A stretch of DNA of 64,000 nucleotides from Clostridia bacterium. GTDB taxonomy: Bacteria > Bacillota > Clostridia > Peptostreptococcales > JAAYPU01. The notes under the pieces are model-generated. The model worked only from the letters and a program-made list of their open reading frames with translations. It was not told the origin of the DNA and ran no database searches. Location: positions 33,628-97,627 of the forward strand of contig JANQMT010000105.1 of assembly GCA_028279945.1 (NCBI GenBank). Direction: 5' to 3'. Below, one piece after another: positions 47,812-63,821 of the stretch (positions are counted from its first letter, which is position 1; the number at the start of each line of letters is the position of its first letter). Both the position numbers and the translations under genes were made by a program.

Positions 47812-47833
47812 AAATCTTTTAGGAGGAATGACC

Positions 47834-48613
47834 ATGAATATTATGGATTTTAATATGGATTTCTTTTCATTGAAAGGCAAAAATGCAGTTGTAACTGGAG
47901 GAAACAGCGGCTTAGGTCAAGCTTTTTCTACTGCTTTAGCAAAAGCCGGTGCAAATGTAATGGCAGCCAGCATTATGGAAGATGATAGTGAAACCAGAGA
48001 AATGGTTGAATCCTGCGGCGTGGCATATAAATATGTTTATGCGGACATTACGGCTGAAGGTGAATGTAAAAGAGTTGTGGATGAATGTGTCAATACATGG
48101 GGAAGTATCGACATTTTAGTAAATTGTGCAGGTATTTGCATCAACATTCAAGATGTAACACAATTTACTAGAAAAGAGTGGGACAAAATGGTTGCGGTGA
48201 ATTTAACGGCTGCATTTGAAATGACCCATGAAGCCTGTAAATACATGATCAAACAACAAAGCGGAAAAGTTGTCAATATTGCATCTTTATTCTCTTTTCT
48301 TGGAGGGCAATGGTCACCGGCTTATGCCGCTACAAAACATGGGATAGTAGGTCTTACAAAATCAATGTGCGATGAATTGGCGCAATTTAATATTCAGGTC
48401 AACGCCATTGCACCGGGATACTTCGCTACAAAGCTGACAGAAAAAACCAGAAGTGATGAAAAGAGAAATGCAGAGATATTGTCTCATATTCCGGCAAATC
48501 GATGGGGATATGTAGCAGATCTTATGGGTGCATGCGTGTTTTTATCAAGTGATGCAGCCAACTATGTAAATGGAACAGTTCTAACAGTGGATGGCGGTTA
48601 TTTAATGAGATAA
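47834..48613 (+). CDS. SDR-family oxidoreductase, KduD/2-deoxy-D-gluconate 3-dehydrogenase-like
   Basis: TGGNSGLGQA cofactor motif, NCAG, and the YAATKHG catalytic YxxxK. Confidence 0.88.
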   Translation: MNIMDFNMDFFSLKGKNAVVTGGNSGLGQAFSTALAKAGANVMAASIMEDDSETREMVESCGVAYKYVYADITAEGECKRVVDECVNTWGSIDILVNCAGICINIQDVTQFTRKEWDKMVAVNLTAAFEMTHEACKYMIKQQSGKVVNIASLFSFLGGQWSPAYAATKHGIVGLTKSMCDELAQFNIQVNAIAPGYFATKLTEKTRSDEKRNAEILSHIPANRWGYVADLMGACVFLSSDAANYVNGTVLTVDGGYLMR

Positions 48614-48658
48614 AACCTCATTATAAATCATCTTGATCATAGGCATAGGGGAGGACAT

Positions 48659-50101
48659 ATGATGAATCAATATATTGTAGCAATTGATGGCGGGACACAA
48701 AGTACGAAAGTAGCCATTTTTGACATATTTGGGACTGAGGTTTGCTCACATACGGTTAAGCTTCGAGAAATCCAATTGTCTGAGAATGAAAGAGCAGAGC
48801 ATCCCGATGATGACTTATGGGACAGCTTGAAACTGGCTTGCAATGAAATGTTCAAAAAATTTAATGGGGTTAAAAAAGATATCATTGGGGTTGGATTAGG
48901 CTCAATCAGATGCTGCCGCGCTTTGGTAAAGGAGAATGGTGATCTGGCCTCTCCTGTGCAAAGCTGGATGGATCTCAGACTATCCAGGCCTTATGAACAT
49001 GAAGACGACAGCGTAAGGTATGTGACCACAACGACGGGGTATTTGACCTATAGGTTGACAGGGGAGACAAAGGATACCAGGGCAAATTACGTAGGCCCTT
49101 GGCCCATAGACCCCATGACTTTGGACTGGTTTGAGGATCAAGAAAAATTTGATGCATTTACAACACCAAGAGAAATGCTATTTGATCTAGTAGATCCTTC
49201 AACCATATTGGGGACAATAACAGAAAAAGCCAGTGAAGCCACAGGCATTCCCGTTGGAGTTCCTGTTGTGGCTACGGCCAATGACAAAGCAGTGGAAGGC
49301 TTAGGAGCAGGTCTTGTAAATGATGGAACCGTTCTTGTATCTTTAGGAACGTATATCACCTCAATGATGGTTGGTAAAGATAACAATTCCAATACAGTAA
49401 ACTATTGGAGTAATCCCGGTGCCACAAAAGGGGAATATCTATATGAAAGCAGCGGCATTCGAAGAGGGATGGTTACGGTTACATGGATTAAGGAACTTTT
49501 AGGCAGCGATATCGAAATTGAAGCTGCAAAACGAGACATGACACCGGAAGGATATTTGAATTTATTGGCTTCGGAAGCTCCCGTAGGATGTGACGGCTTA
49601 TATACGGTATTGAACTGGTTGGCTCGTCCTGACAAATTATATGAGCGGGGAATGATGATAGGGTTTAATGGAACACACAAGGGACCCCATATGTTCCGTT
49701 CTATACTTGAAGGCATTGCCTTCACTATGAAAAATTATGCTCAGGCCATGTGCGATGAATGCGGTATCGCTTTATCCAATATCATTGTCAGCGGAGGCGG
49801 CTCAAACGGTGAGCTTTTTATGCAAATATTTGCCGATGTCTTCGGTGTACCGGCCCGTCGAAATGTTGTCAATGGTTCCGCAAGCATGGGTGCAGCAATA
49901 TGTACAGCTTTAGCTCTCGGTGTTTATAAGGACAGGCAAGAAGCCATAGAGCATATGGTGAAACGGCGGGATACTTTTATGCCCATTGAAAAAAGTGTTA
50001 AGCTGTATAAAGAAATAAACGAAAATGTATACAAGCACATTACGTCATATACGGATGAGCTTTTGAAGAAATCTCACGCCATTTTTGAAGAAAAGATATA
50101 A
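48659..50101 (+). CDS. FGGY-family carbohydrate kinase
   Basis: N-terminal AIDGGTQSTK and C-terminal GGGSNGELFMQIFADVFG motifs. Confidence 0.88.
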   Translation: MMNQYIVAIDGGTQSTKVAIFDIFGTEVCSHTVKLREIQLSENERAEHPDDDLWDSLKLACNEMFKKFNGVKKDIIGVGLGSIRCCRALVKENGDLASPVQSWMDLRLSRPYEHEDDSVRYVTTTTGYLTYRLTGETKDTRANYVGPWPIDPMTLDWFEDQEKFDAFTTPREMLFDLVDPSTILGTITEKASEATGIPVGVPVVATANDKAVEGLGAGLVNDGTVLVSLGTYITSMMVGKDNNSNTVNYWSNPGATKGEYLYESSGIRRGMVTVTWIKELLGSDIEIEAAKRDMTPEGYLNLLASEAPVGCDGLYTVLNWLARPDKLYERGMMIGFNGTHKGPHMFRSILEGIAFTMKNYAQAMCDECGIALSNIIVSGGGSNGELFMQIFADVFGVPARRNVVNGSASMGAAICTALALGVYKDRQEAIEHMVKRRDTFMPIEKSVKLYKEINENVYKHITSYTDELLKKSHAIFEEKI

Positions 50102-50155
50102 GGCTTATTTTAAAAAGAAGTAATAAAACTTTTCTCTTTCTTAGGAGGTGCTATT

Positions 50156-51727
50156 GTGGTAAATCAAAATTTTAATAGCGAAAGAAATTCAAAGAAACAA
50201 AAACTCAGGCTTGCGGTGTTTTTTCCGGCATTCATTTTATTACTTCTTACTATTCTGTTCAACTTTGTGAATGAGGAAGCTTTCTTAAATGCTACAACCA
50301 TTGCGAAGGATTTCATGGTTGTTGATATGGGGTGGGTATTTAGTATAGCAGGCGTTTTGAGTCTGATTCTCATTGTTATCGTCTATGTGTCACCCCTTGG
50401 GAATGTGAAACTTGGAGGCCCTGATGCCAAGCCTCTGTTGAAAAAAAAGACCTGGTTTTCTGTAACCCTTTGTACGACCATTGCAGCAGGTATCTTGTTT
50501 TGGGGAACTGCCGAACCCATGTGGCATTTGGCATACCCGCCGGAATCTCTTGGGATTGAACCCATGTCTCCTGAGGCTGCAAAATTTGCCATGGAAACCA
50601 TGTTTTTGCACTGGACCTTTGTGCCTTATGCGTTATATGCGGTTCCCACCATTGTTTTTGGTTTTGCTTATTATAATATGAGACGCTCCTTTAGTGTCGG
50701 TTCACAAATCGCACCAATTGTAACCCCTGGCAGGCAGAAGAGATTCAATGCTTTCATTGATGCCGTGGTTCTTTTCACAGTGGCAGCGGGTATATCCTCG
50801 TCTTTTGGAACAGCAGTCATGAATATGGGCGGTGGTATGAATGCCCTTTTTGGAGTGAACAACGATAAATTCCTTTGGATTATCATAACGGTTATTGGTA
50901 CGGCAGCATTTATTATTTCATCCAGTACGGGTTTAATGAAAGGGATAAGAATTTTATCGGATATAAATGTATATCTTTATTATATAATCATTGCTGTATT
51001 GTTAGTTTTAGGACCCTCCGTTTACTTTTTTAGCATGGGGACTGAAGCTTTTGGTGGTTTTTTGGACAATATTTTTAGTAAAGCCCTTTTTACCGGTGCT
51101 GCCGCAGGGGATACATGGGCATCAGGGTGGACCATGTTTTACTGGTCTAATTGGATGGCTTGGGCACCTGTATCAGCCGTATTTCTCGCAAGGATTGCCT
51201 ATGGTTACAAAATCAGAGAAGTTGTTATGATGAATTTTGTTATTCCAAGTATATTCAGTACCATTTGGATGACCATATTATCCGGAACCACAATCAATTT
51301 CCAATTAACCGGTAAGGTGGATATCTTGGCTAAAATGAATGAACAGGGTTCAGCAGCTGCAGCCTATACGGTGCTGGGTGAATTGCCATTGTCAGGATTG
51401 ATTATCGGCATTTATCTCATTGCTGTCATAATATCCTTCATTACGGCCACCGACTCTACAACCAACGCTATGGCCAGCATCTGTACGACAGGAATCACTG
51501 ATGGCAAGCAGGAAGCCCCGTTATTGATTAAAGTGGCTTGGGGTATGATTGTTGGTGCAGTGGCGCTTGTATTCATTGCAACATTGGGCTTGGACGGCAT
51601 TAAAATGATGTCTTATCTGGGAGGATTTCCGGCACTGTTCCTCGGCCTTCTCAGCTTAGTATCCTTGATGGTCATTATGAGAAAACCAGAAAAATATGAT
51701 GTGTATTCCAAAAATAAAGAAGCATGA
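50156..51727 (+). CDS. BCCT-family transporter (betaine/carnitine/choline type)
   Basis: Signature WTMFYWSNWMAWAPVSAVFLARIAYGYKIREV. GTG start 9 nt after AGGAGG. 54-nt gap to the kinase gene with no hairpin. Confidence 0.9.
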   Translation: MVNQNFNSERNSKKQKLRLAVFFPAFILLLLTILFNFVNEEAFLNATTIAKDFMVVDMGWVFSIAGVLSLILIVIVYVSPLGNVKLGGPDAKPLLKKKTWFSVTLCTTIAAGILFWGTAEPMWHLAYPPESLGIEPMSPEAAKFAMETMFLHWTFVPYALYAVPTIVFGFAYYNMRRSFSVGSQIAPIVTPGRQKRFNAFIDAVVLFTVAAGISSSFGTAVMNMGGGMNALFGVNNDKFLWIIITVIGTAAFIISSSTGLMKGIRILSDINVYLYYIIIAVLLVLGPSVYFFSMGTEAFGGFLDNIFSKALFTGAAAGDTWASGWTMFYWSNWMAWAPVSAVFLARIAYGYKIREVVMMNFVIPSIFSTIWMTILSGTTINFQLTGKVDILAKMNEQGSAAAAYTVLGELPLSGLIIGIYLIAVIISFITATDSTTNAMASICTTGITDGKQEAPLLIKVAWGMIVGAVALVFIATLGLDGIKMMSYLGGFPALFLGLLSLVSLMVIMRKPEKYDVYSKNKEA

Positions 51728-51934: not shown

Positions 51935-52636
51935 CTACAGTGCAGACTTGATTTCAATATCTTCTACCATACTTTTAAGTTCACTTGTGAATTCTTGTTT
52001 TCCTTCTGCAGTTACTTCCATTACGCATTGTAACATGGGCATGTTTCCGTTGTGAGTGTGTTTTATGCCCAAACCGGTGGCTGCAGCCTGAATATAATCA
52101 AAGAAACTACAGTAAGGAATTAATTCGGGAATATCATTTACTGCTTGAAATTTCCTTACAGCACACTCATTGATGTCAAGAACATACCCTTTTTGTGGAC
52201 ATGTATCTCGACATGTCCATACATAATTATCTTTATATTCTCTTTTTTGAGTCTCATCTCCAAATTTCTTCAGTTTGTTAATCCAAAATTTAGTAGTTGT
52301 AGTAAAACCAATTATCTTTCTAATGAATTTAGGAATCCGCTCAAACATTCTATCGGATAGTTTATATAAAAGTCTAACACTTGTTCTAATTGGATAGCCA
52401 TTGGCCTTCAAAGCCTTGTAAAATGCAATAAATGTAACATTGAGATTCATAATAAATGACATGAGATTACGCTTTCCGATGTCAATTAACTGAACCTTCT
52501 CAATATTAGCATAGCCTTCGTCAATGATCTTCTGTGCTTCTTCTGAAGATTTAACTTCTGTTTCAATGACATCTTTATTCCTGCTGACAAAATTATTATA
52601 GGTTTTTTGAAATTTAGCAAGTTCTTTAGTCTTCAT
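51935..52636 (-). CDS. hypothetical protein, Cys-containing C-terminal half (possibly ATC-hydrolase-like)
   Basis: 233-aa ORF with no competitor. The region CRDTCPQKG..INECAVRKF..IPELIPYCSFFDY resembles my memory of the L-2-amino-thiazoline-4-carboxylate hydrolase family. Unverified. Confidence 0.5.
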   Translation of the reverse strand: MKTKELAKFQKTYNNFVSRNKDVIETEVKSSEEAQKIIDEGYANIEKVQLIDIGKRNLMSFIMNLNVTFIAFYKALKANGYPIRTSVRLLYKLSDRMFERIPKFIRKIIGFTTTTKFWINKLKKFGDETQKREYKDNYVWTCRDTCPQKGYVLDINECAVRKFQAVNDIPELIPYCSFFDYIQAAATGLGIKHTHNGNMPMLQCVMEVTAEGKQEFTSELKSMVEDIEIKSAL

Positions 52637-53014: not shown

Positions 53015-55060
53015 TTGAGAAATGGGGTGAGAAACATATTCTATTTAAATAAACGTCAGCAGCAAATCTTAGAATTTCTGATATTAAAAAAAGACAAAAT
53101 CAATTATGAGGAAATAAGTAAAAGGTTTCTTGTTTCAAAAAGGACAATAAGAAATGATTTGGATCTCATTGGTGATTTTTTGTCTTCAAGAAATATTAAA
53201 TTGTCTCGTGATAATGCAGGGGCATTTTATATTGAAAATGCTAATGCCGATCAGCTGGCTGAGTTAATGTCTTCCGATGCAATCCTGATTTTAAATCAAA
53301 ACGAACGTCAGCAGTTAATAATATTGTCCTTACTTGAAAAAGAGCATCCTTTAACCATCGAAGATATCTCCAATTTTCTCGGTGTCAGTTACTCAACCGT
53401 GGCAAACGATATAAAAAATATTCATGGTTTACTTACGGAATTGGGATTAACCATTTTCAAGAAACCCAATTACGGAATCAGTCTTAGCGGTGATGAGAAA
53501 ACAATAAGAGCATCCATTATTAAAATAATAACATCCAATGTAGATTCAAGACTTTTAAACGGGCTGATAAATTGGCGAGATTTTTCATTAAATAACAAAG
53601 TGATGGATACTTTTTTTGAGATTGATTCTCTGAGAGAAATCAGAAGCTTTTTCTACGAAATGTGCCTGAATTATCGCTGTGGTTTCCCAGATAGTGACAG
53701 TATTTTATTGGTTTTGGGGTTAGCCATAAAATTAAAAAGAATAAGTATTGGCAGGGTACTTAACAATAATCTTTCAACAGAAAATTCTGAAGAGGTTACA
53801 AATAATGATCTATATTTTAAAATGGCCGAATTCGTGGCGCAAAGAGTAGAAGCCAGTTACGGTATCAAGATGAGTGAATATGAATTAAATGATTTTGTTG
53901 TGTTAATAAAAAGCACTCGTTTTATATTCTTTGATGATTTTGAAATAGCAGATTACCAGCAATACTTAGCACATAGCATGAAAAAAGCAGAGTTGGTTAC
54001 TTGGGGCGTCCTTAAAAAGATGGAAGCTTTGTATGGAATTGACTTGATGAATAACCATCAACTCATTACATCTTTAAAGAATCATCTGGCTATATCATTA
54101 TATCGAGTGGAGAACCGTGTTTTAATTTATAATCCTCTTACGGATGAGATAAAGCAAAATTATCCATATTTATTCAATTTAATCAGTTTCATGATTGAAG
54201 ATTTAATGAAAACCTATGGCTATATAAAAATGCCGGATGATGAGATCAGCTATATCGTCATTTATCTTCAGGTAGCTTTTGAAAATATGAAGAAAAATAA
54301 GCTTCCCCCAAAGCCCAAAGTATTAGTAATCTGCAACACATCCAATATAATAGCAAACTACCTTAGAGTTAAGTTAGAAAAAGAGTTCCCGGAATTAGAC
54401 TTAATCGGTCCTGTACTTTTAGGAATAGGTGATAACAATGTTATAAACAACAACCGGCCTGAATTGATCATCTCTACTGAACCCTTAAAATCAGCAGAAT
54501 GCCCGGTATGTATAATTAGTCCCTTAGTTACTGAAAGCGATATCGATAAAATTAATACAGCGCTGACCGATTTGGCAAAATCAGATGGGTTTAAAGGAGT
54601 GAATCAATACGTGCTTAAAGATTTATTACGCCGAGATGCAATAAAGCTTAGAGTTAAAGCAGAAAATTGGGAAGAAGCCATAAGAAAATCCGGTGAAATG
54701 TTGTTGAAGCTGGACTATATTGAAGAAAAATATATAGATGCTATGATTCAAACGGTCCATAAACTTGGTCCCTATATCGTTATTGCCCCGGGAATAGCTT
54801 TAGCCCATGCCCGACCCGAAGAGGGCGTCATTAAAACAAGTTTTTCTTTAATTACTTTAGAAGATCCGGTCCAATTTGGAAACAAAGACAATGATCCGGT
54901 AAATCTGGTGGTAACAATAGCTGCGCTTGATCACAACAGTCATATTAAAGCTATTAGTGAACTCATTGATATCATCGGAAACAAAGAAAAGTATAAAATA
55001 ATAACTTCTTCCAATGACCTCAATGAGGTTTTTGAATTGCTTTATGGAACGTTGGTGTGA
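53015..55060 (+). CDS. PRD-domain transcriptional activator (MtlR/LicR/ManR type): HTH-HTH-PRD-PRD-EIIB-like-EIIA
   Basis: 681 aa. Two N-terminal wHTH modules, two PRD regions, an EIIB-like segment (KVLVICNTSN) and a C-terminal PTS EIIA type-2 domain (GIALAHARPEEG). The start codon is non-ATG and uncertain. Confidence 0.85.
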   Translation: MRNGVRNIFYLNKRQQQILEFLILKKDKINYEEISKRFLVSKRTIRNDLDLIGDFLSSRNIKLSRDNAGAFYIENANADQLAELMSSDAILILNQNERQQLIILSLLEKEHPLTIEDISNFLGVSYSTVANDIKNIHGLLTELGLTIFKKPNYGISLSGDEKTIRASIIKIITSNVDSRLLNGLINWRDFSLNNKVMDTFFEIDSLREIRSFFYEMCLNYRCGFPDSDSILLVLGLAIKLKRISIGRVLNNNLSTENSEEVTNNDLYFKMAEFVAQRVEASYGIKMSEYELNDFVVLIKSTRFIFFDDFEIADYQQYLAHSMKKAELVTWGVLKKMEALYGIDLMNNHQLITSLKNHLAISLYRVENRVLIYNPLTDEIKQNYPYLFNLISFMIEDLMKTYGYIKMPDDEISYIVIYLQVAFENMKKNKLPPKPKVLVICNTSNIIANYLRVKLEKEFPELDLIGPVLLGIGDNNVINNNRPELIISTEPLKSAECPVCIISPLVTESDIDKINTALTDLAKSDGFKGVNQYVLKDLLRRDAIKLRVKAENWEEAIRKSGEMLLKLDYIEEKYIDAMIQTVHKLGPYIVIAPGIALAHARPEEGVIKTSFSLITLEDPVQFGNKDNDPVNLVVTIAALDHNSHIKAISELIDIIGNKEKYKIITSSNDLNEVFELLYGTLV

Positions 55061-55063
55061 AAA

Positions 55064-56086
55064 ATGAAAATATTTAAAGAGCCTGAGCAGGTTAAATGTG
55101 AGATTATTAATCTGCTTCTGAAGTGTAAAGCCAGTTGTGAGAATGCCGAGATAGTTGCCGACTCATTGGTTTTTGCGGATATGCGGGGTACAAAATCTCA
55201 TGGATTGAATATGTTGGAAGCGTATTTACAAAGAATTAATGCCGGCGGTATGTGTCCTCAAGCTTCACCGAAAATATTAAATGAAACCGGGGTGACGGCG
55301 GTAGTTGACGGACAAAATGGTTTTGGACAAATTGCAGCACAAAAAGCAGTTGAGATTGCCATAAGAAAAGCAAAAGAAAACCATATTTCCGGAATAAGTA
55401 TTCGAAATTCAAACCATTGCGGAGCCTTGTCATATTATACCAAACAGATTGCTGAAAACGGAATGATTGGTTTTATGTATGCAAATGTAAATCCAAACGT
55501 GGCTGCTTTTGGGGGAATGGAAGCCGTTCTTGGGACCAATCCTCTTGCCATAGCCATGCCTTGCCCCAAGGCACCCATTATACTGGATATGGCGACAAGC
55601 ACGGTTGCCAAAGCAAAAATATATCACGCCCGGGAATTAGGGCAGAACATTGATCCGTCTTGGGCAATTGATGTTGACGGAAATCCGACTACTGACCCTG
55701 ATGCTGCTATAAAAGGGGTTCTTACGGCAGCAGCGGGGCCTAAAGGCTATGGATTGGCAGTGGCAGTTGAAGTACTTGCAGGCGTCATGACCGGAGCAGG
55801 AATGACCAAAGAGGTTCCCTCCGTACATCGGGGCGTTGACAGAGGCATGAATGCGGGTGCATATATGATGGCGGTCAACCCCGGAGCATTTATTGAAGCA
55901 AGTGAATATATGGAACGTGTAGATGGGTTATCTTCTGAAATAAAGAATTCAAAGCCTCAACCCGGTAAAACAATATTTTTACCTGGGGAAATTGAAGAAG
56001 AAAATTACAAAAAAGCACTTCGCGATGGCATTGAGTATGAAGAAAGCTTCTATACGCATGCTTTAGGAGGGGATACAAAGACATAA
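55064..56086 (+). CDS. Ldh_2-family (malate/L-lactate/sulfolactate/diketogulonate-type) NAD(P)H oxidoreductase
   Basis: Motifs RGTKSHGLNMLEAY, IRNSNHCGAL and LGTNPLAIAMP. Starts 3 nt after the regulator gene. Confidence 0.85.
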   Translation: MKIFKEPEQVKCEIINLLLKCKASCENAEIVADSLVFADMRGTKSHGLNMLEAYLQRINAGGMCPQASPKILNETGVTAVVDGQNGFGQIAAQKAVEIAIRKAKENHISGISIRNSNHCGALSYYTKQIAENGMIGFMYANVNPNVAAFGGMEAVLGTNPLAIAMPCPKAPIILDMATSTVAKAKIYHARELGQNIDPSWAIDVDGNPTTDPDAAIKGVLTAAAGPKGYGLAVAVEVLAGVMTGAGMTKEVPSVHRGVDRGMNAGAYMMAVNPGAFIEASEYMERVDGLSSEIKNSKPQPGKTIFLPGEIEEENYKKALRDGIEYEESFYTHALGGDTKT

Positions 56087-56191
56087 ACAAATTGTATTGA
56101 ATTAAAAACGGCGAGAATTGTTTTATGATGACATTTTTTAATAACAGCTGTCAAAGTGCAATGGAGAATAATGATAGAAAGGAGGAGGAAT

Positions 56192-56491
56192 ATGAAAGTT
56201 TTAGCTGTTTGCGGATTAGGAATAGGTTCCAGCGTCATTCTAAAAATCAGTGTCGGTAAAATTCTGGATGACATTGGCATTAAGGATTACAGTATCGATG
56301 TGGCAGACATTGGTACAGCGAAGTCCATTCCTTTTGATATGGCCGTTACAAATGTAGAGTTGGCTGATGTATTAAAAAAAGGAATTCCGTTAGAGAAGCA
56401 TTTGAGGGTAGTAACCGTCAATAATTTTGTGGATAAAGATGAAATGAAATCTAAGATTTCGGCATGTCTAAAAGAGATTGGCGAAATCTGA
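56192..56491 (+). CDS. PTS ascorbate-family EIIB component (UlaB/SgaB-like)
   Basis: MKVLAVCGLGIGSS with the phospho-Cys. ATG 56192 follows AAGGAGGAGG. Confidence 0.85.
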   Translation: MKVLAVCGLGIGSSVILKISVGKILDDIGIKDYSIDVADIGTAKSIPFDMAVTNVELADVLKKGIPLEKHLRVVTVNNFVDKDEMKSKISACLKEIGEI

Positions 56492-56538
56492 GGGGGGCTT
56501 CACACAAAAATTATAAATATTAAGGAGTGTGACATTGA

Positions 56539-57816
56539 ATGAGTTTTTTATGGAGTTTAATCAATAACGTGCTGACAAATGCAAACATATTGATCGGTTT
56601 GGTAGTATTTATCGGGTTGCTTGCTCAAAAAAAATCGTCGGATCAGATCATTACAGGCACCCTCAAAACAATTATGGGCATTATAATTCTCAGTACCGGC
56701 GCAGGCGTAATGGCCGGTGTAATCTCAAATTATCTGGCACCTCTTATGACTCAAGCTTTCGACGTTAAAGGCATTGTGCCAATGACGACATCCGTTGTTT
56801 ATCTTGCAACAGAGGCTTATGGTTCAACCGTTGCATATATTATCCTTGGCTCCTTTCTAGTTAATTTAATACTGGCAAGGTTTACGCCTCTAAAATATAT
56901 ATTTCTTTCAGGGCATCATTTTCTTTATGTCGCTTCAACTATTGCGGTGGCCTTTGCGGCAGCAGGAGTCTTTGGAATGTCAGCCATTATTATGGGTTCA
57001 CTTATTGCAGGCTTTGCTTATGCGGCGCTTCCTGCCATTAATAACAAGTTTATGCGGAATATTACGGGAGATCAGCCCCTGGCAATGGGGCACTTTGGCG
57101 CCACTGGTTACTGGTTGGGAGGACAAGCAGGAAAGCTGTTCAAAAAAGATAAGGATAACAGCACTGAATCCTTAAAGCTTCCAAAAGCGTTCAGTTTTGC
57201 CAAAGAAGTGATCTGTGCGACAACACTGATTATCGTTATTCTTTTAGGCATATGTGTGGCAATAGCAGGTACAGGTTATCTAGTCAATGATCTTAACATT
57301 TCGGATAATATAGTCGTGTTTATTCTAATGCAGGGTATTACTTTTGGTGCAGGGCTTACGATACTGATGCAGGGTGTCAGAATGTTAATTACCGAAATTC
57401 TCTCAGCCTTTGAGGGCATTGCTTCCAAAGTCGTTCCCAACGCCGTACCGGCACTTGACTGTCCGGTAGTATTTCCCTATGCGCCCAATGCCGTCTTAAT
57501 CGGTTTCGTTTCAGCTACAGTAGTGGGCATTCTCACCTCAGTCGTATTCGGTTTGGCTACCGGAGTGGGTGTGGTACCTCCTATGATAGAGTTTTTCTTT
57601 ATGGGTGGTGCGGCAGGTGTTTTCGGTAATTCAACCGGCGGGGTCAAGGGTGCAGTCATAGCCGGAGCAATTCAAGGTGTACTATTCATCATTCTGCCTG
57701 CCCTATATTTTGAAGCCTGTGCTTCCATATTAGGACCGGTAAACGTTACTGTTGTTGACCCTGACTTTTGCTGGTCAGGACTTATTGCCAATACAATCGG
57801 CAGATTCATTAACTGA
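56539..57816 (+). CDS. PTS ascorbate-family EIIC component (UlaA/SgaT-like)
   Basis: 425 aa polytopic protein with an UlaA-like N-terminus (NANILIGLVVFIGLLAQKKS). Confidence 0.88.
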   Translation: MSFLWSLINNVLTNANILIGLVVFIGLLAQKKSSDQIITGTLKTIMGIIILSTGAGVMAGVISNYLAPLMTQAFDVKGIVPMTTSVVYLATEAYGSTVAYIILGSFLVNLILARFTPLKYIFLSGHHFLYVASTIAVAFAAAGVFGMSAIIMGSLIAGFAYAALPAINNKFMRNITGDQPLAMGHFGATGYWLGGQAGKLFKKDKDNSTESLKLPKAFSFAKEVICATTLIIVILLGICVAIAGTGYLVNDLNISDNIVVFILMQGITFGAGLTILMQGVRMLITEILSAFEGIASKVVPNAVPALDCPVVFPYAPNAVLIGFVSATVVGILTSVVFGLATGVGVVPPMIEFFFMGGAAGVFGNSTGGVKGAVIAGAIQGVLFIILPALYFEACASILGPVNVTVVDPDFCWSGLIANTIGRFIN

Positions 57817-57836
57817 TTGGTTGAAGGTTGAAGACG

Positions 57837-58472
57837 ATGGAATTTATAGATATTTCACAGGCGTATAAGCCTGGGATGAAACGCTACAGGAGCATGGATG
57901 ATTTTAAATACGAATGGATCAGGCATTACGACAAAGGCTCCGGCATGGCGCTCTCACGCTCAGTCATTCCGAGCCATCTCGGTACACATATTGATTCACC
58001 TTACCATTTTATTAAAAACGGTAAAAAAATAGGTGATATCCCCATTAAAACGTTGTGCGGAAAAGCTCAGGTGATAAATGCAACGGGCAGGTTGTATATT
58101 GACAGCCATTTTTTAAAAAGTCTCACAATAACTTGCCCAAGACTTATCTTTAAGACCGATAATACGGAAAAACTTAAAATCGAAACGGACTTTGACAATG
58201 TATATTTCACTGATGATGCCTGCCAGTACCTTGCATCACAAAATATATTGCTTGTGGGCACGGACTACTTTAATGTAGATGCCAGAGGCGACAAGAATCG
58301 CAAAGCGCACAGGATACTATTAAAAAATGACATCGTTATATTGGAGGGGGCTGTACTTGATGAAGTCTTTGAGGGCGAATACGATCTGTACTGCCTGCCC
58401 CTAAAGGTTAACGAATTGGAAGGTGCGCCATGCAGAGCTGTACTTAAAAAGTTGAAAAAGAATGGAGCTTGA
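57837..58472 (+). CDS. cyclase-family protein (kynurenine formamidase-like metal hydrolase fold)
   Basis: HLGTHIDSPYH motif (HxGTHxDxPxH). Confidence 0.8.
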   Translation: MEFIDISQAYKPGMKRYRSMDDFKYEWIRHYDKGSGMALSRSVIPSHLGTHIDSPYHFIKNGKKIGDIPIKTLCGKAQVINATGRLYIDSHFLKSLTITCPRLIFKTDNTEKLKIETDFDNVYFTDDACQYLASQNILLVGTDYFNVDARGDKNRKAHRILLKNDIVILEGAVLDEVFEGEYDLYCLPLKVNELEGAPCRAVLKKLKKNGA

Positions 58473-58473
58473 T

Positions 58474-59358
58474 ATGAAAGTTATTGTAACCGGAGCATCG
58501 GGACTGCTCGGTTCAGATGTTTCGGATGTATTTGATAATGCTGGATACAGCGTAGTGAGGCTAATGGGCAGAAAATCCGTCAATATACAAAATACAAAGG
58601 AAATTGTCAAATTTATAGAGAAAGAGAATCCTGAACTAATTGTGCACTGTGCAGGGTATCGTGATATTGACGAGATGGAAAAGAACGAGGCGGAAGGTTA
58701 CACGCTGAATACCTTCGGTACAAAAAATATAGCACTTGCTGCATGGCGGTTAGGCTGTAAGCTCATTTATATAAGCAGCGATACAGTCTATGACGGAGAA
58801 AAGGAAACAGGCTACCACGAGTATGACACATTAAACCCTGTCAATGTTTATGGCAGAAGCAAGCTAATGGCGGAACATGAAATTAAGGCCTTATGTAATT
58901 GTTTTTTTATCATAAGGACGGCACTGTTGTTTGGGTACAAAGGGCATGGTGAAAATAATCTCATTTTAAATATTATCAATCAATTAAAGGCAGGTAAGGC
59001 GGTTTATGCCAGCACCAATCAGATCTGCTGCCCGTCCTATACGAAGGATCTTGCAGAAGTACTTTTAAAGATTTCACAAACAGAGTATTTTGGCACATAT
59101 CTGATTGCAAACACAGGGACTGCTTCTCGTTATGAAGTAAACCGCGCCGTTGCAGAACTTGCAGGCCTGGACAAATCTCTGGTATGCCCTATGGACGAAA
59201 ATAACACTAGACCGGCAAAAAGGTCACGTAATACAGTCTTTGAGTCCATTGCGTTTCCCAACACCTTTGGAATCGAAATGGCAGACTGGCATGACGCCCT
59301 TCAACGGTGCATGTCTGAAATATTAAAATTGGAAAGGACGGCCGGTGATGACCAATAA
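58474..59358 (+). CDS. RmlD-like NAD(P)-dependent reductase (dTDP-4-dehydrorhamnose reductase fold)
   Basis: MKVIVTGASGLLGS Rossmann motif, YGRSK catalytic YxxxK, and length of about 295 aa. Confidence 0.8.
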   Translation: MKVIVTGASGLLGSDVSDVFDNAGYSVVRLMGRKSVNIQNTKEIVKFIEKENPELIVHCAGYRDIDEMEKNEAEGYTLNTFGTKNIALAAWRLGCKLIYISSDTVYDGEKETGYHEYDTLNPVNVYGRSKLMAEHEIKALCNCFFIIRTALLFGYKGHGENNLILNIINQLKAGKAVYASTNQICCPSYTKDLAEVLLKISQTEYFGTYLIANTGTASRYEVNRAVAELAGLDKSLVCPMDENNTRPAKRSRNTVFESIAFPNTFGIEMADWHDALQRCMSEILKLERTAGDDQ

Positions 59359-60271
59359 GAGAGTTCTAGTGGCTTCAAAGACCTGCCGTACAGTGATGCC
59401 GGAAAATGAGATGCGAATACTGTTTTTAGAACACGGTATGGAACCTGACTTTCGTTTTCTTTGCGACAGTATGGGTGACTTAAGCGAGTTCGATGCTGTA
59501 ATCATAGGCACGGAATATATTGGAGAAAATGAGCTTAGGCTTATGAAAAAAGTACGGGTTATTGAGAAATTCGGTGTGGGCACGGACAATATCGACTTAA
59601 GAGCTGCCCAAAAGCGCAATATTGAAATTCTCAATATGCCGGGTATAAACAGTGAATGTGTAGCCGAAATGGCGCTGAGCCTGATGATGGCCGCTGCACG
59701 CTGTATAACCGTATCGGACAGGAGCGTAAGATCCGGCAGTTGGCCGAGAATTATCGGGTCATCTATGTGTGGGAAAACGCTGGGCATTATTGGCACCGGC
59801 GCTATTGGAAGAGCGGTATGCAGCCTTGTATCAGGGTTTCATATGGATGTTTTGGGTTTCGACCCTATGGAGAATACCGAGTTTACAAAACTTGGCGGAC
59901 GCTATGTTTCGTTTCACACACTGCTTGAAAACTCCGATTTTATTAGCCTTCACGTACCTCTATTAGACGCTACTCGTCATTTGATAGGTAAAAGTGAGCT
60001 TTCTATTATAAAAGAAAATGTTGTCATTATCAATACGGCAAGAGGCGGATTAATAGATGAAGCTGCACTTTATGAGTTTCTTCTGAAACACGGCAGTGCT
60101 CGTGGGGGGCTGGATGTCTTAGAGCATGAGCCGCCATTAAACAGTCCCCTTTTAAGTCTTTCCAATGTGATTATCACGCCTCATATTGCTGCATACGATG
60201 ACGGGACACTGAGGAGAATGCTGACTATGTGTATCAATAATCTTGAAGCGTTCTTTAATAAATTAGGATAA
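59345..60271 (+). CDS. D-isomer-specific 2-hydroxyacid dehydrogenase family protein
   Basis: GIIGTGAIGRAV NAD motif, NTARGGLID and ITPHIAA catalytic His region. Confidence 0.85.
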   Translation: MMTNKRVLVASKTCRTVMPENEMRILFLEHGMEPDFRFLCDSMGDLSEFDAVIIGTEYIGENELRLMKKVRVIEKFGVGTDNIDLRAAQKRNIEILNMPGINSECVAEMALSLMMAAARCITVSDRSVRSGSWPRIIGSSMCGKTLGIIGTGAIGRAVCSLVSGFHMDVLGFDPMENTEFTKLGGRYVSFHTLLENSDFISLHVPLLDATRHLIGKSELSIIKENVVIINTARGGLIDEAALYEFLLKHGSARGGLDVLEHEPPLNSPLLSLSNVIITPHIAAYDDGTLRRMLTMCINNLEAFFNKLG

Positions 60272-60400
60272 GACATGAAGAAAAAGAAGTTAAAAGCAAT
60301 GATATGGCGTAGAAACTTGCTGCGACAATACATTTAAAGATGGTAAAGATTACTTATGTAATCATCAAATATACCAATACATAATATGGAGGGAAACATA

Positions 60401-61300
60401 ATGAAAGCAAAAGAATTTATTGGAATTATTCCACCGGCACTATCATCATTTGATAAAAATGGTGAGCTATACGAAAAGGGAATTCGTGAGAACATCCGCT
60501 TTTTACTGCCATATGTAAACGGTCTTTACCCTATTGGAACATATGGCTGCGGTCCATGCATGGGAATTGACGAACGCAAGCAAGCGTTGGAAATCATTTT
60601 GGATGAAGTAAATGGGAAGGTTCCGGTTGTTGCACATGTAGGAACTGCCGATACAAAAACCACGTGTGAGCTTGCAAGGCATGCTAAAAGTGCCGGTGCA
60701 TCAGGTGTTGGAGCGATATCACCCTACTACTCTCCCAACCTATCTGAAGAAGCGTTGTATGCGCATTTTTCCAAGCTTTTGGATGCAGTTAATGAAGAAG
60801 AATTTCCGGTATTTGTGTACAACAATCATCATCTCTCACAGAATACCATCACGCCTAAGCTTTTATATAAGCTGGCTGAAAATGGATTACGCGGCTGCAA
60901 GGACAGTTCATTTGATATCGTAAATTATTATGCATTCCATGAGGCAATTAAAGAGTTTAAAGATTTTAACCTGATTGTTGGAACCGAGGCTATTTTTGTT
61001 GCTGCATTTGATGCAGGTGCAACCGGCTGCGTGTGCGGTATGGCAAACGCTTTCCCAGAGATTATGAAAGACTTGTACGATGCATATATCAAAGAAGAAA
61101 AGGAGAAAGCAATGGAGCTTCAGTACAGGGTTCTTGAAATGCGCAAGGTCATAAAGTCCGGACCCACGGTTCCTATTTTACATGCAATCCTTGCTATGCG
61201 AGGCATTGACTCAGGAGTTCCGAGAAGTCCATACATTGATGTCAGCGACGAGTTGAAAGCCAATGTTGCACAGAGCCTTAAAAAGATGAACCTGTTATAA
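60401..61300 (+). CDS. DapA/NAL-family class I aldolase (atypical N-terminal motif)
   Basis: Schiff-base lysine context GCKDSS, SPYY and VYNN tyrosines retained. GTYGCG stands in place of GTTGE. ATG 60401 follows GGAGGG. Confidence 0.8.
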   Translation: MKAKEFIGIIPPALSSFDKNGELYEKGIRENIRFLLPYVNGLYPIGTYGCGPCMGIDERKQALEIILDEVNGKVPVVAHVGTADTKTTCELARHAKSAGASGVGAISPYYSPNLSEEALYAHFSKLLDAVNEEEFPVFVYNNHHLSQNTITPKLLYKLAENGLRGCKDSSFDIVNYYAFHEAIKEFKDFNLIVGTEAIFVAAFDAGATGCVCGMANAFPEIMKDLYDAYIKEEKEKAMELQYRVLEMRKVIKSGPTVPILHAILAMRGIDSGVPRSPYIDVSDELKANVAQSLKKMNLL

Positions 61301-61392
61301 ACAAACATAGAGCGGTAGCGGATGTAATAACGCTGCCGCAATTACAATTAGTAATCAATCGCCTTGATTGACAGTAAAAAGAGGTAAGTTTT

Positions 61393-61653
61393 ATGGTAAA
61401 GCAAGATGTACTTATTACAAATCCCACAGGTATCCATGCAAGGCCTGCTACCATGCTTGTGGATCTTTCAAAAAAGTTTGAATCAAATATTGTTATTGAA
61501 TTTGAAGGAATAAAGATCAACCCTAAGAGCATTCTCAGCGTACTTTCAGGGGAATTGAAGTCAGGAAAAAAGATATCCGTTGATGCAAGCGGCCCAGATG
61601 CCAACGAGGCTGTAAATGCAATTTGTAATTTCATTCGAACATTGAAGGAATAA
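61393..61653 (+). CDS. HPr-family phosphocarrier protein (locus-specific copy)
   Basis: 86 aa. GIHARPA with His15, and KSILS with Ser46. Confidence 0.9.
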   Translation: MVKQDVLITNPTGIHARPATMLVDLSKKFESNIVIEFEGIKINPKSILSVLSGELKSGKKISVDASGPDANEAVNAICNFIRTLKE

Positions 61654-61760
61654 AAAGTGTAATATTGAATTATTTATAAAAAGAGCATTGTAGAACAAGC
61701 GTAATCCTGTTATGACATATTATTATTGAACTATAAAAATTATTTGGAGGTGTGCTAAAT

Positions 61761-62675
61761 ATGCATGCATGGGAAGCAATTCAAAAAACAGTAGATTATA
61801 TTGAGGATAATTTGTCAGAAAAGATTACGACAGAAGAACTTGCAGCAATTGCTGCACTTTCTCCTTTTTATTTCCAAAGGCTCTTCACTCGATTAGTAAA
61901 TAAACCGGTAGGCGAGTATGTCAAATTGAGACGACTGGCTAGATCCTGTGAAGCATTAAAGAACAAGAACAAACGAATATTAGATGTTGCACTGGATTTT
62001 GGCTTTAACAGTCATGAAAGTTATACGAAAGCCTTTAAGATGGCATTTGATATCACACCTGATGAATACCGCAAAAATCCTATTCGTCTCAATCAAATTG
62101 TAAAACCAGAATTATTACTAAACTATACAATGATTGATGAAGATGTTCCGTTAATTACTGATAACATTGTTATAGAAATCACACGTAAGACACTGGATTT
62201 TCCTGAGAAATATGTAGGTATTACCGGTCAGGTAGCCATTTCCTCACAATTACCATTAGGCGAAACAACCGGTGTTGATACGCCAGGCGCACTTTGGGAT
62301 ACCTTTCATGAGAATAAACCAAACATCTTAGGCTTAATTCCTGACGGCATAGAGCTTGGAGCATCTATGATGGATGAATCCGGTGGTGAAACCTTCACTT
62401 ATTTTGCAGGTGGCACAGCTGATGATGATGCTTGTGCAGATGAAAAACTTACTATATGGGAATTACCTGCAGCTGAATATGTGGTGTGCTGCTTTGAGGC
62501 AGAAAGCTTTTCGGAGCTTACCACTTCAGCATTGAATAAAGCAATGAAATACCTCTTTGGAACATGGCTCCAAGTACACGACTTAGTCACACAGCCTTTT
62601 TCTGCTGAAAAGTATTATAAAACAACACCTGATGCAACGTATATGGAGATTTGGGTTATGCCTGTTCCTAAGTAA
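61761..62675 (+). CDS. AraC-family regulator with GyrI-like effector-binding domain
   Basis: N-terminal double HTH (LSPFYFQRLF, FGFNSHESYTKAFK) and a C-terminal GyrI-like/AraC_E_bind half. ATG 61761 follows GGAGGTG. Confidence 0.85.
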   Translation: MHAWEAIQKTVDYIEDNLSEKITTEELAAIAALSPFYFQRLFTRLVNKPVGEYVKLRRLARSCEALKNKNKRILDVALDFGFNSHESYTKAFKMAFDITPDEYRKNPIRLNQIVKPELLLNYTMIDEDVPLITDNIVIEITRKTLDFPEKYVGITGQVAISSQLPLGETTGVDTPGALWDTFHENKPNILGLIPDGIELGASMMDESGGETFTYFAGGTADDDACADEKLTIWELPAAEYVVCCFEAESFSELTTSALNKAMKYLFGTWLQVHDLVTQPFSAEKYYKTTPDATYMEIWVMPVPK

Positions 62676-62725: not shown

Positions 62726-62759
62726 AGCTTTCAATCATTCATTGATTGAAAGCTTTTTA
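62726..62759 (+). terminator. rho-independent terminator
   Basis: AGCTTTCAATCA / TGATTGAAAGCT perfect 12-bp stem with a 5-nt loop and a T-run. Confidence 0.8.
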
Positions 62760-63053: not shown

Positions 63054-63821
63054 ATGAAGACCTATACCACATCAGAAATTGCACGGATAATTGGTATACA
63101 TCCGAATACGGTAAGACTTTATGAGAAATATGTGCTGATACCAAAACCAAAGCGACAGGAAAATGGCTACCGCGTGTTTACGGATTTTCATGTGGCGCAA
63201 TTTAGACTTGCAAGAGCAGCCCTAAAAGTACCGGTTTTACAAAACGGTTTGCGGAAAAAAGCCATTGATATTATTAAAACTTCAGCCACCGGAGATTTTG
63301 ATCAAGCCATTGGCCTTACTGAGAGTTATCTGCAACAAATCGGTAAAGAACAGATGAATGCTGAAGAAGCTATCACAATTGTAAGGCAAATATTATGCGG
63401 CGATATGGCTAAAGAAAAAATGGACCAACGATTCCTTACCCGGAAGGAAACGGCTGATTATCTGCAAGTTACAATAGATACCTTAAGAAATTGGGAATTA
63501 AATGGTCTGCTGACGGTTAAACGAAAGCAAAATGGTTATCGTATTTATACAGGAGAAGATATCAAACGGTTGAAGGTTATACGAACACTCCGTTGTGCCA
63601 ACTATTCCCTTGCGTCTATTTTGCGAATGTTGAGGGCATTATCCGGTAATCCTCAAGTAAATATAAGAAAGGTGATAGACACACCTCAAGAAAGTGAAGA
63701 CATTGTATCTGTTTGTGATGAATTGTTGACATCATTAAAAGCTGCTGAGAACAATGCACAAAATGTGTTAGCGCACCTTCTAAAGATGAAAAAGAAATAT
63801 AAAAACGACCCTACACTATAA
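63054..63821 (+). CDS. MerR-family regulator with two tandem MerR-type HTH domains
   Basis: First HTH: YTTSEIARIIGIHPNTVRLYEKYVLIPKPKRQENGYRVF. Second HTH: LTRKETADYLQVTIDTLRNWELNGLLTVKRKQNGYRIY. Confidence 0.85.
   Translation: MKTYTTSEIARIIGIHPNTVRLYEKYVLIPKPKRQENGYRVFTDFHVAQFRLARAALKVPVLQNGLRKKAIDIIKTSATGDFDQAIGLTESYLQQIGKEQMNAEEAITIVRQILCGDMAKEKMDQRFLTRKETADYLQVTIDTLRNWELNGLLTVKRKQNGYRIYTGEDIKRLKVIRTLRCANYSLASILRMLRALSGNPQVNIRKVIDTPQESEDIVSVCDELLTSLKAAENNAQNVLAHLLKMKKKYKNDPTL

Follow-up and report, generated by a model that had tools for sequence, protein, structure and literature searches.

Which carbohydrate does a phosphotransferase system (PTS) of the ascorbate family import when the enzymes encoded beside it are not those of ascorbate breakdown? 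The question arises from a gene block at positions 53015-61653 of a 64,000-nucleotide stretch of DNA from an uncultured Clostridia bacterium of gut type (contig JANQMT010000105.1), which was analysed as a whole and is referred to as the window. Genomes carry many 'ascorbate' EIIC genes without established substrates, and to our knowledge L-ascorbate is the only substrate established for an ascorbate-family PTS. The block described here probably encodes an undescribed breakdown route for a sugar acid or lactone. Taken as a whole, the best explanation, to which we assign a moderate probability, is a substrate-inducible operon for a carbohydrate. Aldonolactones, keto-aldonolactones and related sugars of acidic or deoxy-keto character are the likeliest candidates for this compound, which would be degraded on a PTS-fed route resembling the Entner-Doudoroff (ED) pathway.

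The list of open reading frames (ORFs) and profile scans place nine tightly packed, co-directional genes in this interval (Table 1). A sequence-only reading of the same DNA had described such a block, and Pfam and NCBIfam matched the families that it had assigned to all nine ORFs. The intergenic gaps are, in gene order, +3, approximately 105, 47, approximately 20, -11, -14, approximately 129 and 92 nt. Three junctions thus overlap or almost abut: the Ldh_2 gene starts 3 nt past the regulator stop codon, and the RmlD-like gene overlaps the cyclase gene by 11 nt.

Table 1. Genes of the ascorbate-family PTS block, with positions in the window.
Gene product	Positions	Strand	Remarks
PRD/EIIA regulator	53015-55060	+	681 aa; HTH_11/Mga + PRD + PTS_EIIA_2
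Ldh_2 oxidoreductase	55064-56086	+	Pfam Ldh_2 368.6 bits
EIIB, UlaB type, 99 aa	56192-56491	+	ATG at 56192; longest ORF from GTG at 56156
EIIC-GAT, ascorbate/SgaT/UlaA family	56539-57816	+	Pfam 352 bits
Cyclase (PF04199) metallohydrolase	57828/57837-58472	+	motif HLGTHIDSPYH
RmlD_sub_bind extended short-chain dehydrogenase/reductase (SDR)	58462-59358	+	Pfam 226.9 bits
D-2-hydroxyacid dehydrogenase (2-Hacid_dh)	59345-60271	+	Pfam 2-Hacid_dh_C 183 bits
DHDPS/NAL-family lyase	60386/60401-61300	+	Pfam DHDPS 162 bits
HPr	61393-61653	+	Pfam PTS-HPr 87 bits

The catabolic enzymes of the Ula/Sga pathway had been reported as absent from the block, and our Pfam scans, which took in the ORFs of at least 150 aa across all 64 kb, agree. 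Neither a UlaG-type lactonase of the metallo-beta-lactamase fold (Lactamase_B family) nor a UlaD-type decarboxylase nor UlaF was found in the block or in the window, and neither a UlaE nor a UlaF epimerase was found in the block. The sole xylose-isomerase-like TIM-barrel protein, the fold family of UlaE, is encoded 42 kb away at 10007-10945, beside a uridine-kinase-family gene. With the E. coli Ula/Sga system (UlaABC plus UlaG, UlaD, UlaE and UlaF) the block shares the transporter family (PF03611) and the lack of a kinase, the substrate being phosphorylated by the PTS; its EIIB and EIIA domain resemble UlaB and UlaC at scores below the equivalog cutoffs. Plausibly, the first intracellular step is also the same, namely the metal-dependent opening of a phosphorylated lactone. 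The block differs in that its hydrolase has the PF04199 fold and UlaG, UlaD, UlaE and UlaF are missing, in that a PRD protein stands in the place of the DeoR-type regulator UlaR, in that four UlaA contacts are replaced, and in the proposed end products, which would be pyruvate and a triose phosphate formed by a Schiff-base lyase rather than xylulose-5-phosphate.

The block is also without a kinase gene, which fits phosphorylation by the PTS, as the sequence-only reading had argued; non-PTS relatives of the aldolase-like lyase usually lie near a sugar kinase gene. The closest sugar kinase in the window is an FGGY gene (48659-50101). We rejected it as the 'missing kinase' because it is part of another cluster, because BCCT and opposite-strand genes intervene, and because it is not conserved beside the block in the orthologous locus L001 (loci are referred to by such numbers below). 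That separate co-directional cluster upstream (43272-51727) encodes an FAD-linked oxidase of the glycolate/D-lactate oxidase type, an MFS transporter, the beta and alpha subunits of ETF, an SDR, the FGGY kinase and a BCCT transporter. Between it and the PTS block lies a gene on the opposite strand to which Pfam assigns no family (51935-52636). The AraC/GyrI gene 3' of HPr (61752-62675) was likewise rejected as a block member, since it is not conserved and another gene follows HPr in L001.

Does the transporter itself point to ascorbate? The EIIC reaches 428.5 bits (cutoff 380) on NF006919, 'PTS ascorbate transporter subunit IIC', a model that represents a sequence cluster rather than an experimentally tested specificity, and it aligns with E. 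coli UlaA (4rp8) at 4.9e-42 and 28% identity. The contact residues of UlaA (PMC6048161) were mapped onto it through HMMER and MAFFT alignments, a procedure that is moderately reliable at such an identity. Seven of the 11 alignable ascorbate-contact positions are kept (T86, H135, H194, R288, D314, I358 and F362), and the remaining four carry the exchanges Y87T, I136H, Q139Y and Q195F. Eight orthologues from modules of the window's type (module I) show this pattern without variation, except for I358L in L005, and the EIIC of a sister module, described below, has a third type of pocket. In UlaA, exchanges of contact residues for Ala or Ser, including those of Y87, I136, Q139 and Q195, are reported to impair or abolish ascorbate binding (PMC6048161). 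Since these four residues are invariantly replaced, the substrate of the EIIC is probably not L-ascorbate. It is likely of ascorbate-like size and bears a phosphorylatable hydroxyl.

We therefore consider it unlikely that the block is a system for L-ascorbate, a stereoisomer such as D-erythorbate, or dehydroascorbate, in which non-homologous enzymes replace UlaG and UlaD-F. The cyclase-fold enzyme would then hydrolyse ascorbate-6-phosphate, and 3-keto-L-gulonate-6-phosphate or 2,3-diketogulonate would pass to the three oxidoreductases, with no decarboxylation. The NF006919 score, the seven kept contacts, H135, H194 and D314 among them, and the UlaB- and UlaC-like EIIB and EIIA domains would suit such a system, but the invariant T, H, Y and F lie where exchanges are reported to cripple binding. 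Similarly, the Ldh_2 family includes the 2,3-diketo-L-gulonate reductase YiaK, but the best PDB matches of the window protein are L-sulfolactate dehydrogenase (2x06, 3e-71) and 1vbi, with YiaK at 4e-26. Because it is far nearer to sulfolactate and malate dehydrogenases, we rejected an assignment as a YiaK orthologue. Moreover, we could devise no straightforward chemistry from 3-keto-gulonate-6-phosphate to a substrate of a pyruvate-type class I aldolase, and no full route from ascorbate-6-phosphate to such a substrate could be drawn with the encoded enzymes alone without a dehydration or elimination step.

If the block is not an ascorbate operon, is it a unit at all? By sequence comparison, its standing beyond chance comes from conservation and not from sequence statistics. 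Every close relative of the cyclase (at least 45% identity) that has enough flanking DNA lies in the same gene set. L001 has the gene order of the window at 74-84% identity. In metagenome-assembled genomes (MAGs) of Treponema/Spirochaetaceae (L002-L004 and L010) the order is IIB-IIC-cyclase-RmlD-HADH-EIIA-Ldh_2-DHDPS-regulator-HPr-EI (HADH, 2-hydroxyacid dehydrogenase; EI, enzyme I), and in L005 and L006 it is regulator-IIB-IIC-cyclase-RmlD-HADH-EIIA-Ldh_2-DHDPS. A DeoR regulator replaces the PRD protein in L094 and L095, and L146 also carries the set. The L092/L093 type is without the D-2-hydroxyacid dehydrogenase, and its DHDPS-like protein shares a 90%-identity cluster with that of the isolate Pseudoflavonifractor sp. 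AF19-9AC. The carriers are Treponema MAGs, Oscillospiraceae (including this isolate) and other Clostridia. Since the gene set is retained with shuffled order across Firmicutes and Spirochaetes, the block appears to be a selected pathway and not a product of chance. Hence, the neighbourhood comparison that the sequence-only reading had suggested returns a coherent conserved unit, which recurs rearranged in distant lineages.

A fortuitous juxtaposition of a PTS with housekeeping or biosynthetic genes (RmlD for rhamnose, DapA for lysine) that form no single pathway is highly improbable in view of this conservation of the full set across phyla, to which may be added the overlapping or abutting genes, dapA and nanA scores far under their cutoffs and the lack of rmlA, rmlB and rmlC in the block. 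It would account for the score of the RmlD-like protein, which falls within one bit of an equivalog cutoff (TIGR01214, 223.4 vs 224.05 bits), and would gain from the fact that co-transcription is deduced from spacing.

A sister module surfaced in a scan of species-representative genomes with the cyclase. Its proteins are 30-48% identical to those of the window, its EIIC belongs to a different subfamily, and it encodes a paralogous lyase, DHDPS2 (motif GSYG[SA]G). In Acidilutibacter cellobiosedens (complete genome CP035282.1) the order is regulator-IIB-IIC-EIIA-HADH-Ldh_2-DHDPS2-cyclase-RmlD. The sister module is also found in a mouse-gut Dorea MAG (L012), in Tissierellales MAGs (L061 and L167), in L007 and in a MAG labelled Thermofilaceae (L011), and a gene of the 2-keto-3-deoxygalactonate kinase family (DGOK) is added in L007, L061 and L167. 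In ABC-transporter clusters DHDPS2 stands beside DGOK, and the DHDPS subfamily of the window stands beside PfkB kinases resembling 2-keto-3-deoxygluconate (KDG) kinase or beside FGGY; these kinase partners suggest two stereochemical series. The D-2-hydroxyacid dehydrogenase is absent from L092, and both this enzyme and Ldh_2 are absent from L007. Not all of the three redox steps that the sequence-only reading had placed after the hydrolase are consequently obligatory.

Some module versions have unusual additions. The Tissierellales sister module of L061 is headed by a 420-aa protein with two tandem PF04199 domains (9344-10606). In L011 (CAZCTW010000001.1, labelled uncultured Thermofilaceae archaeon) HPr, EIIB, an ascorbate-type EIIC, a 2-hydroxyacid dehydrogenase, the cyclase and a DHDPS-like protein are encoded together, with an HTH_10 (haloarchaeal-type) regulator and a luciferase-like monooxygenase as neighbours; provided that the contig was binned correctly, the PTS-linked module has an archaeal version here. 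In the PTS-type variant L132 a GH4 glycoside hydrolase and a peptidase-C45/AAT-family protein (5156-6400 and 8918-10078) occur among the module genes, a hint that the compound taken up by some versions is a glycoside or conjugate of the sugar acid.

Of all proteins of the set, the DHDPS-like lyase is conserved best. Its identity to the full-length orthologues of the PTS modules L001-L006 is 76-84%, and its identity to proteins from Mesotoga and from MAGs that carry the labels Deltaproteobacteria and Corynebacteriales is 65-70%. An identical protein has been deposited from a 'Clostridia bacterium' MAG, and the subfamily gives 485 matches at E<1e-30, with 65-90% identity across phyla. Its equivalog scores lie below the cutoffs for dapA (118 vs 206), nanA (NF003164, 125 vs 281), the archaeal KD(P)G aldolase (121 vs 390) and KdgD (84 vs 374). 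Neither the Schiff-base Lys167 (in GCKDSS) nor the catalytic Tyr140 varies among 21 members of the subfamily. The usual carboxylate-binding motif G-[ST]-[ST]-G-E is replaced by G-T-Y-G-C-G as part of the subfamily motif YPIGTYGCGP. The AlphaFold model has the (beta/alpha)8 fold with a mean pLDDT of 92 and TM scores of 0.9 to NAL, YagE and DHDPS, and its only segment with pLDDT below 50 comprises residues 47-50 (TYGC of GTYGCGP), the site at which characterised relatives bind the pyruvate carboxylate. Single-sequence, profile and fold comparison with PDB entries placed the protein in no characterised subfamily. Since it is equidistant by all three measures from DapA, NanA, YagE and the archaeal KD(P)G aldolases, we assign it to an uncharacterised, widespread and highly conserved subfamily.

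What such a lyase may cleave is suggested by the company that its orthologues keep, which was counted in 34 non-redundant metagenome loci carrying the DHDPS subfamily of the window, with kinases counted within 8 genes. An FGGY, PfkB or DGOK kinase is near in 25 of the 34 loci, and both PTS-type loci are without one. An ABC transporter is found in 20 of them, a dehydrogenase resembling phosphoglycerate dehydrogenase (PGDH) in 17, a cyclase-fold gene in 16, a LarA-like protein (nickel-pincer 2-hydroxyacid racemase/epimerase) in nine and an ILVD_EDD dehydratase in eight. The neighbouring PfkB kinases score best as KDG and 5-dehydro-2-deoxygluconate kinases. Mesotoga prima, with a 69%-identical DHDPS-like protein, has a cluster of ILVD_EDD, DHDPS, an ABC sugar transporter, a glucose-1-dehydrogenase-like SDR, a cyclase, FGGY and IclR. 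By its predicted functions this cluster would be an oxidative layout leading from sugar over lactone, aldonate and keto-deoxy acid to cleavage, with the cyclase as the sole lactonase candidate. Altogether, GTYGCGP-subfamily lyases are encoded in no fewer than four types of cluster without a PTS (L090/L091 from Mesotoga prima, L097, L113, L125 and others within L096-L174), whose contents include ILVD_EDD, FGGY/PfkB/DGOK, DHDPS2, PGDH-like, LarA-like, UxaC/UxaE, cyclase-fold and DUF362 proteins; we know of no pathway that any of these layouts matches.

The proposed route shares its logic with the ED, semi-phosphorylative ED and DeLey-Doudoroff pathways, in which a sugar dehydrogenase, a lactonase, a dehydratase, a KDG/KDGal kinase and a KD(P)G aldolase convert a sugar or lactone via the aldonate and the phosphate of a 2-keto-3-deoxy acid to pyruvate and glyceraldehyde-3-phosphate. 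A DHDPS-superfamily aldolase would be used as in archaea, and orthologues of the window lyase lie beside ILVD_EDD and KDG-type, FGGY or DGOK kinases. In contrast to those pathways, the phosphate would come from the PTS, the block has no dehydratase and three extra oxidoreductases, the lactonase candidate is of a fold not known for that role, and the lyase remains far from the archaeal KD(P)G aldolase in score.

The candidate for the lactonase is the cyclase-fold protein (Pfam Cyclase, 5.9e-18). Its metal ligands, as defined for KynB (H47, H51, D53, H57, H158 and E170), are invariant in 19 orthologues, as are W27, R29, Y31, R102, N109, C199 and R200. The closest solved relatives are kynurenine formamidases (1e-30). 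Fold matches comprise KynB (4co9), the Mn hydrolase 8hmo, isatin hydrolase and the cyclase-phosphotriesterase 8f9x. The substrates hydrolysed by solved members of the fold are a formamide, the lactam isatin and, for one entry, phosphotriesters. Of the 68 protein clusters listed at E<=1e-10 from a collection of 5.8 billion proteins, approximately 21 are at least 45% identical to the window cyclase, and at least one close orthologue, from a Treponema MAG, is present among 185,579 species-representative genomes. Because the metal site is intact, because the gene is tightly paired with the RmlD-like gene, and because a cyclase-fold protein occupies a lactonase-like slot in Mesotoga, it is plausible that this binuclear metallohydrolase is a lactonase acting on the ring of the substrate after its phosphorylation. 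The argument is the recurring association of the cyclase fold with the DHDPS-like lyase and not orthology. The ring-opening role put forward in the sequence-only reading thus gains in plausibility from the distant Mesotoga protein and from the lactam- and phosphotriester-hydrolysing fold members. Its call for profile and structure annotation was answered in part: the families are confirmed, but the DHDPS-like protein receives no characterised subfamily and the cyclase model (mean pLDDT 74, with the N-terminal third including the metal motif below 50) confirms the fold and nothing more.

The kinship to kynurenine formamidases raises the question of an amide-bearing substrate, such as an N-formyl or N-acyl amino-sugar acid resembling nonulosonic acids, for which the cyclase-fold enzyme would be a deacylase and the DHDPS-like protein a NanA-type lyase. 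We regard this as quite unlikely. The arylformamidase equivalog (TIGR03035) is matched well under its cutoff (144 vs 223 bits). Neither tryptophan dioxygenase nor kynureninase families were found in any annotated module locus, where the neighbouring genes encode PTS proteins and sugar-acid enzymes. The DHDPS-like protein does have NAL-type lyases among its best matches in structure, and isatin (lactam) hydrolases are among the closest solved relatives of the cyclase, but elsewhere this DHDPS subfamily stands with sugar-acid dehydratases, KDG-type kinases, UxaC, UxaE and LarA-like proteins, which speaks for neutral or acidic sugar chemistry. Aminotransferase genes do lie beside the L094 and L146 modules; the module itself is without a deaminase, an N-acetyl-sugar kinase or epimerase, or any other amino-sugar gene.

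Very unlikely, in our view, is a role of the cyclase-fold protein as a phosphoesterase that removes or shifts the PTS phosphate, leaving non-phosphorylated keto-deoxy acids that would be phosphorylated again by DGOK in some lineages. Module I has no kinase, and a futile cycle of phosphorylation and dephosphorylation would be uneconomical, although the sister modules L007 and L061 do carry a DGOK-family gene despite their PTS. The annotation of 8f9x as a cyclase-phosphotriesterase is the structural point in favour of this role, but that entry is remote from the window cyclase (E ~1e-3 by sequence and 17-19% identity in the fold alignment).

Cyclase and RmlD-like genes form the tightest pair of the set and are adjacent in almost all loci. 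The RmlD-like protein keeps GxxGxxG and a Ser/Thr-Tyr-Lys triad with the catalytic Ser and YxxxK. Compared with two true RmlD proteins, its subfamily has a 3-aa insertion (KGHxEN) and the changes SW to SR and RPKYS to R(A/S)(R/K)NT. The rmlA, rmlB and rmlC families were found neither in the block nor among the window ORFs of at least 150 aa, and no rml genes were found in orthologous loci with enough flanking sequence, where the RmlD-like gene adjoins cyclase and PTS genes. Since these partner genes are lacking, a part in rhamnose biosynthesis was rejected.

For the D-2-hydroxyacid dehydrogenase the best NCBIfam model is PGDH (234.7 bits, cutoff 454) and the best PDB match is the PGDH 1wwk (1e-53), which makes it a protein of the phosphoglycerate-dehydrogenase/glyoxylate-reductase type. 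In clusters without a PTS, orthologues of it (40-46% identity) accompany the DHDPS subfamily of the window. The Ldh_2 protein stays under the cutoffs of all NCBIfam equivalogs. By their nearest relatives, the two dehydrogenases fit 2-hydroxy acids with a distal anionic group, for example a phosphate. Together, a D- and an L-specific enzyme could interconvert or funnel C2 epimers via the 2-keto acid, and a LarA-like enzyme might do this job in the non-PTS clusters. To judge from the conserved residues, all enzymes of the block appear catalytically competent. A parallel is the SlcC/ComC sulfolactate 'racemase' of Chromohalobacter salexigens, in which an Ldh_2-family enzyme and a second dehydrogenase of opposite stereospecificity act on a 2-hydroxy acid with a distal anion. 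The pairing of opposite stereospecificities and the closeness of the window Ldh_2 to 2x06 are shared by way of analogy only, whereas the block has no sulfonate chemistry and the partner enzyme is PGDH-like.

The PTS proteins complete the set. By its domain architecture (PRD at residues 332-419 and PTS_EIIA_2 at residues 537-676), the regulator is of the PRD type and of the MtlR/LicR/ManR class, and it would act as an activator by family analogy. On NF007694 ('ascorbate IIA') it scores 122.8 bits (cutoff 187). Its C-terminal domain is the sole EIIA in the window: tblastn with EI and stand-alone EIIA queries matched only this domain of the window. With the stand-alone EIIAs of L002 and L005 this domain shares 44-48% identity, compared with 23% identity between the full-length regulator and the Treponema regulator. 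A stand-alone EIIA is absent in both the window and L001, and in this lineage the EIIA domain of the regulator may serve transport as well as regulation. The EIIB carries the UlaB-like motif KVLAVCGLGIGSS (CGxGxGSS) and is matched by Pfam PTS_IIB at 4.6e-07 and by NF007094 at 5.6e-13, under equivalog cutoffs; its orthologues are likewise called at 99 aa. The HPr passes TIGR01003 (80.2 bits, cutoff 47.9), shows GIHARPA around His15 and KSILS around Ser46, and is linked to the module in L001-L004 and L092.

From gene content, conservation and catalytic motifs, all of which were observed, we infer a route whose step order, redox direction, substrate and products are proposals. First, phosphate would flow from EI over the HPr of the operon to EIIA, EIIB and the ascorbate-type EIIC, by which the substrate would be imported and phosphorylated; the EIIA would be the C-terminal domain of the regulator or one encoded elsewhere. 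Second, the cyclase-fold metallohydrolase would open the phosphorylated ring, presumably a lactone, to an acyclic phospho-sugar acid. Third, the translationally coupled RmlD-like SDR would reduce a ring keto group or, acting as a C1 dehydrogenase, make the lactone. Fourth, the PGDH-like (D) and Ldh_2 (L) enzymes would set oxidation state or configuration at C2 and funnel either epimer to the 2-keto acid; since some module versions are without one or both of them, they are accessory. Fifth, the Schiff-base lyase of the DHDPS subfamily would cleave a phosphorylated 2-keto-3-deoxy acid similar to KDPG (2-keto-3-deoxy-6-phosphogluconate) into pyruvate and a phosphorylated aldehyde, for example glyceraldehyde-3-phosphate, a step proposed because of its family and of the genes beside its orthologues. 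Finally, the PRD regulator would couple transcription to the phosphorylation state of the PTS, by analogy with MtlR and LicR.

A class I pyruvate aldolase needs a 3-deoxy-2-keto acid, a point that the sequence-only reading had overlooked. ILVD_EDD, UxuA and enolase-superfamily dehydratases were not found by Pfam in the block or among the window ORFs of at least 150 aa, and tblastn of the window with a Mesotoga ILVD_EDD dehydratase and with a DGOK kinase gave no match. As the operon is without a dehydratase, the 3-deoxy position must stem from the substrate itself, from an eliminative ring opening or from an enzyme elsewhere in the genome. The substrate might already be 3-deoxy, such as 3-deoxy-aldonolactones or 3-deoxy-dicarbonyl sugars, in which case a C1 dehydrogenase, a lactonase and an aldolase would suffice, in keeping with the minimal core of the module. 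Alternatively, the ring might be opened by elimination, in the manner of galactarolactone cycloisomerase in the oxidative uronate pathway. The third option, chemically reasonable like the other two, would be an unlinked dehydratase.

The oxidative uronate pathway of Agrobacterium and Pseudomonas comprises Udh, an extended SDR, the lactone cycloisomerase Gci, and KdgD of the DHDPS family, and its eliminative lactone opening gives the keto-deoxy acid directly, with no separate dehydratase. The combination of an extended SDR, a putative lactone-processing enzyme and a DHDPS-family enzyme recurs in the block, and the eliminative opening is a possible precedent for the 3-deoxy problem. Unlike the block, however, the uronate pathway has no PTS and none of its intermediates is phosphorylated, Gci is an enolase-superfamily enzyme without the cyclase fold, and in the block the KdgD score is low and an alpha-ketoglutarate-semialdehyde dehydrogenase is absent.

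A more specific proposal, which we put forward tentatively and regard as rather doubtful, is a dehydratase-free, PTS-fed route in which the cyclase-fold enzyme acts on a phosphorylated sugar lactone, perhaps by elimination, and feeds the G-[TS]-Y-G-x-G aldolases. It would serve a substrate class without a known bacterial pathway, such as 3-deoxy-aldonolactones, 3-deoxy-dicarbonyl sugars (3-deoxyglucosone) and related Maillard or degradation products. The sister modules would then handle C4 epimers (gluco and galacto series), module I with EIIC-I and DHDPS subfamily 1, and module II with EIIC-II and DHDPS2, sometimes with DGOK.

Several points weigh against the substrate-inducible, ED-like operon. 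No dehydratase that would form the 2-keto-3-deoxy acid is encoded in it, and this is the main mechanistic gap. We know of no characterised PF04199 member that is a sugar lactonase, and a full-text literature search found no published one. The Mesotoga cyclase is remote from that of the window, with local similarity around the metal motif only, which makes the lactonase analogy weak. Instead of cleaving an aldol, the DHDPS-like protein could dehydrate or decarboxylate its substrate as enzymes of the KdgD or L-KDA-dehydratase type do, and strictly speaking a nucleotide-sugar substrate is still conceivable for the RmlD-like protein, given its near-cutoff equivalog score. Co-transcription is deduced from gene spacing only, and scans of the intergenic gaps for sigma-70 promoters, terminators, cre-like sites and inverted repeats gave nothing above chance; the lone strong terminator-like hairpin lies at 62726-62754, past the downstream AraC gene. 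Finally, the moderate probability given above applies to the explanation as a whole, and the individual enzymes are assigned from their sequences.

A full-text literature search found no published description of this gene set, in agreement with the earlier statement that a pathway of this composition is undescribed. The component families and a PTS-linked catabolic operon under a PRD regulator are familiar; the gene combination, the carbohydrate context of a PF04199 enzyme and the DHDPS subfamily are what we found no description of. The module is thus a conserved and testable case in which the attached enzymes show an 'ascorbate' EIIC annotation to be probably wrong. If the proposed route is true, it would be the first carbohydrate-metabolic role for a PF04199 'cyclase' enzyme, and it would give a function to a DHDPS-like subfamily of several hundred database clusters, with 65-90% identity across Clostridia, Spirochaetes, Thermotogae and others, which pipelines now label 'dihydrodipicolinate synthase family protein'. 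Cultured carriers, Pseudoflavonifractor sp. AF19-9AC for the window type and Acidilutibacter cellobiosedens for the sister type, make a search for the substrate possible. The compound sought may be a sugar acid or lactone that comes from the diet, from plants or from the host and is of relevance to gut, rumen, termite-gut and digester ecosystems.

The remainder of the window is ordinary chromosome, with genes for enolase, H+-pyrophosphatase, RNase R, PcrA, LigA and transporters. The interval 20374-25962 starts with a gene of the proline racemase family, after which come genes for a TRAP transporter (DctP/Q/M) and for an alpha/beta fusion resembling serine dehydratase; with its divergent HTH/cupin regulator, the group looks like a utilisation cluster of the (hydroxy)proline type or for amino-acid derivatives. 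A PfkB kinase followed by an Indigoidine_A-family protein (11424-13261) corresponds to a pseudouridine kinase/glycosidase pair of the YeiC/YeiN type. Close to the 3' end of the window, a 255-aa protein (63054-63821) contains a MerR-type HTH region twice, at residues 5-42 and at residues 131-195; such a duplication is unusual for MerR architectures.

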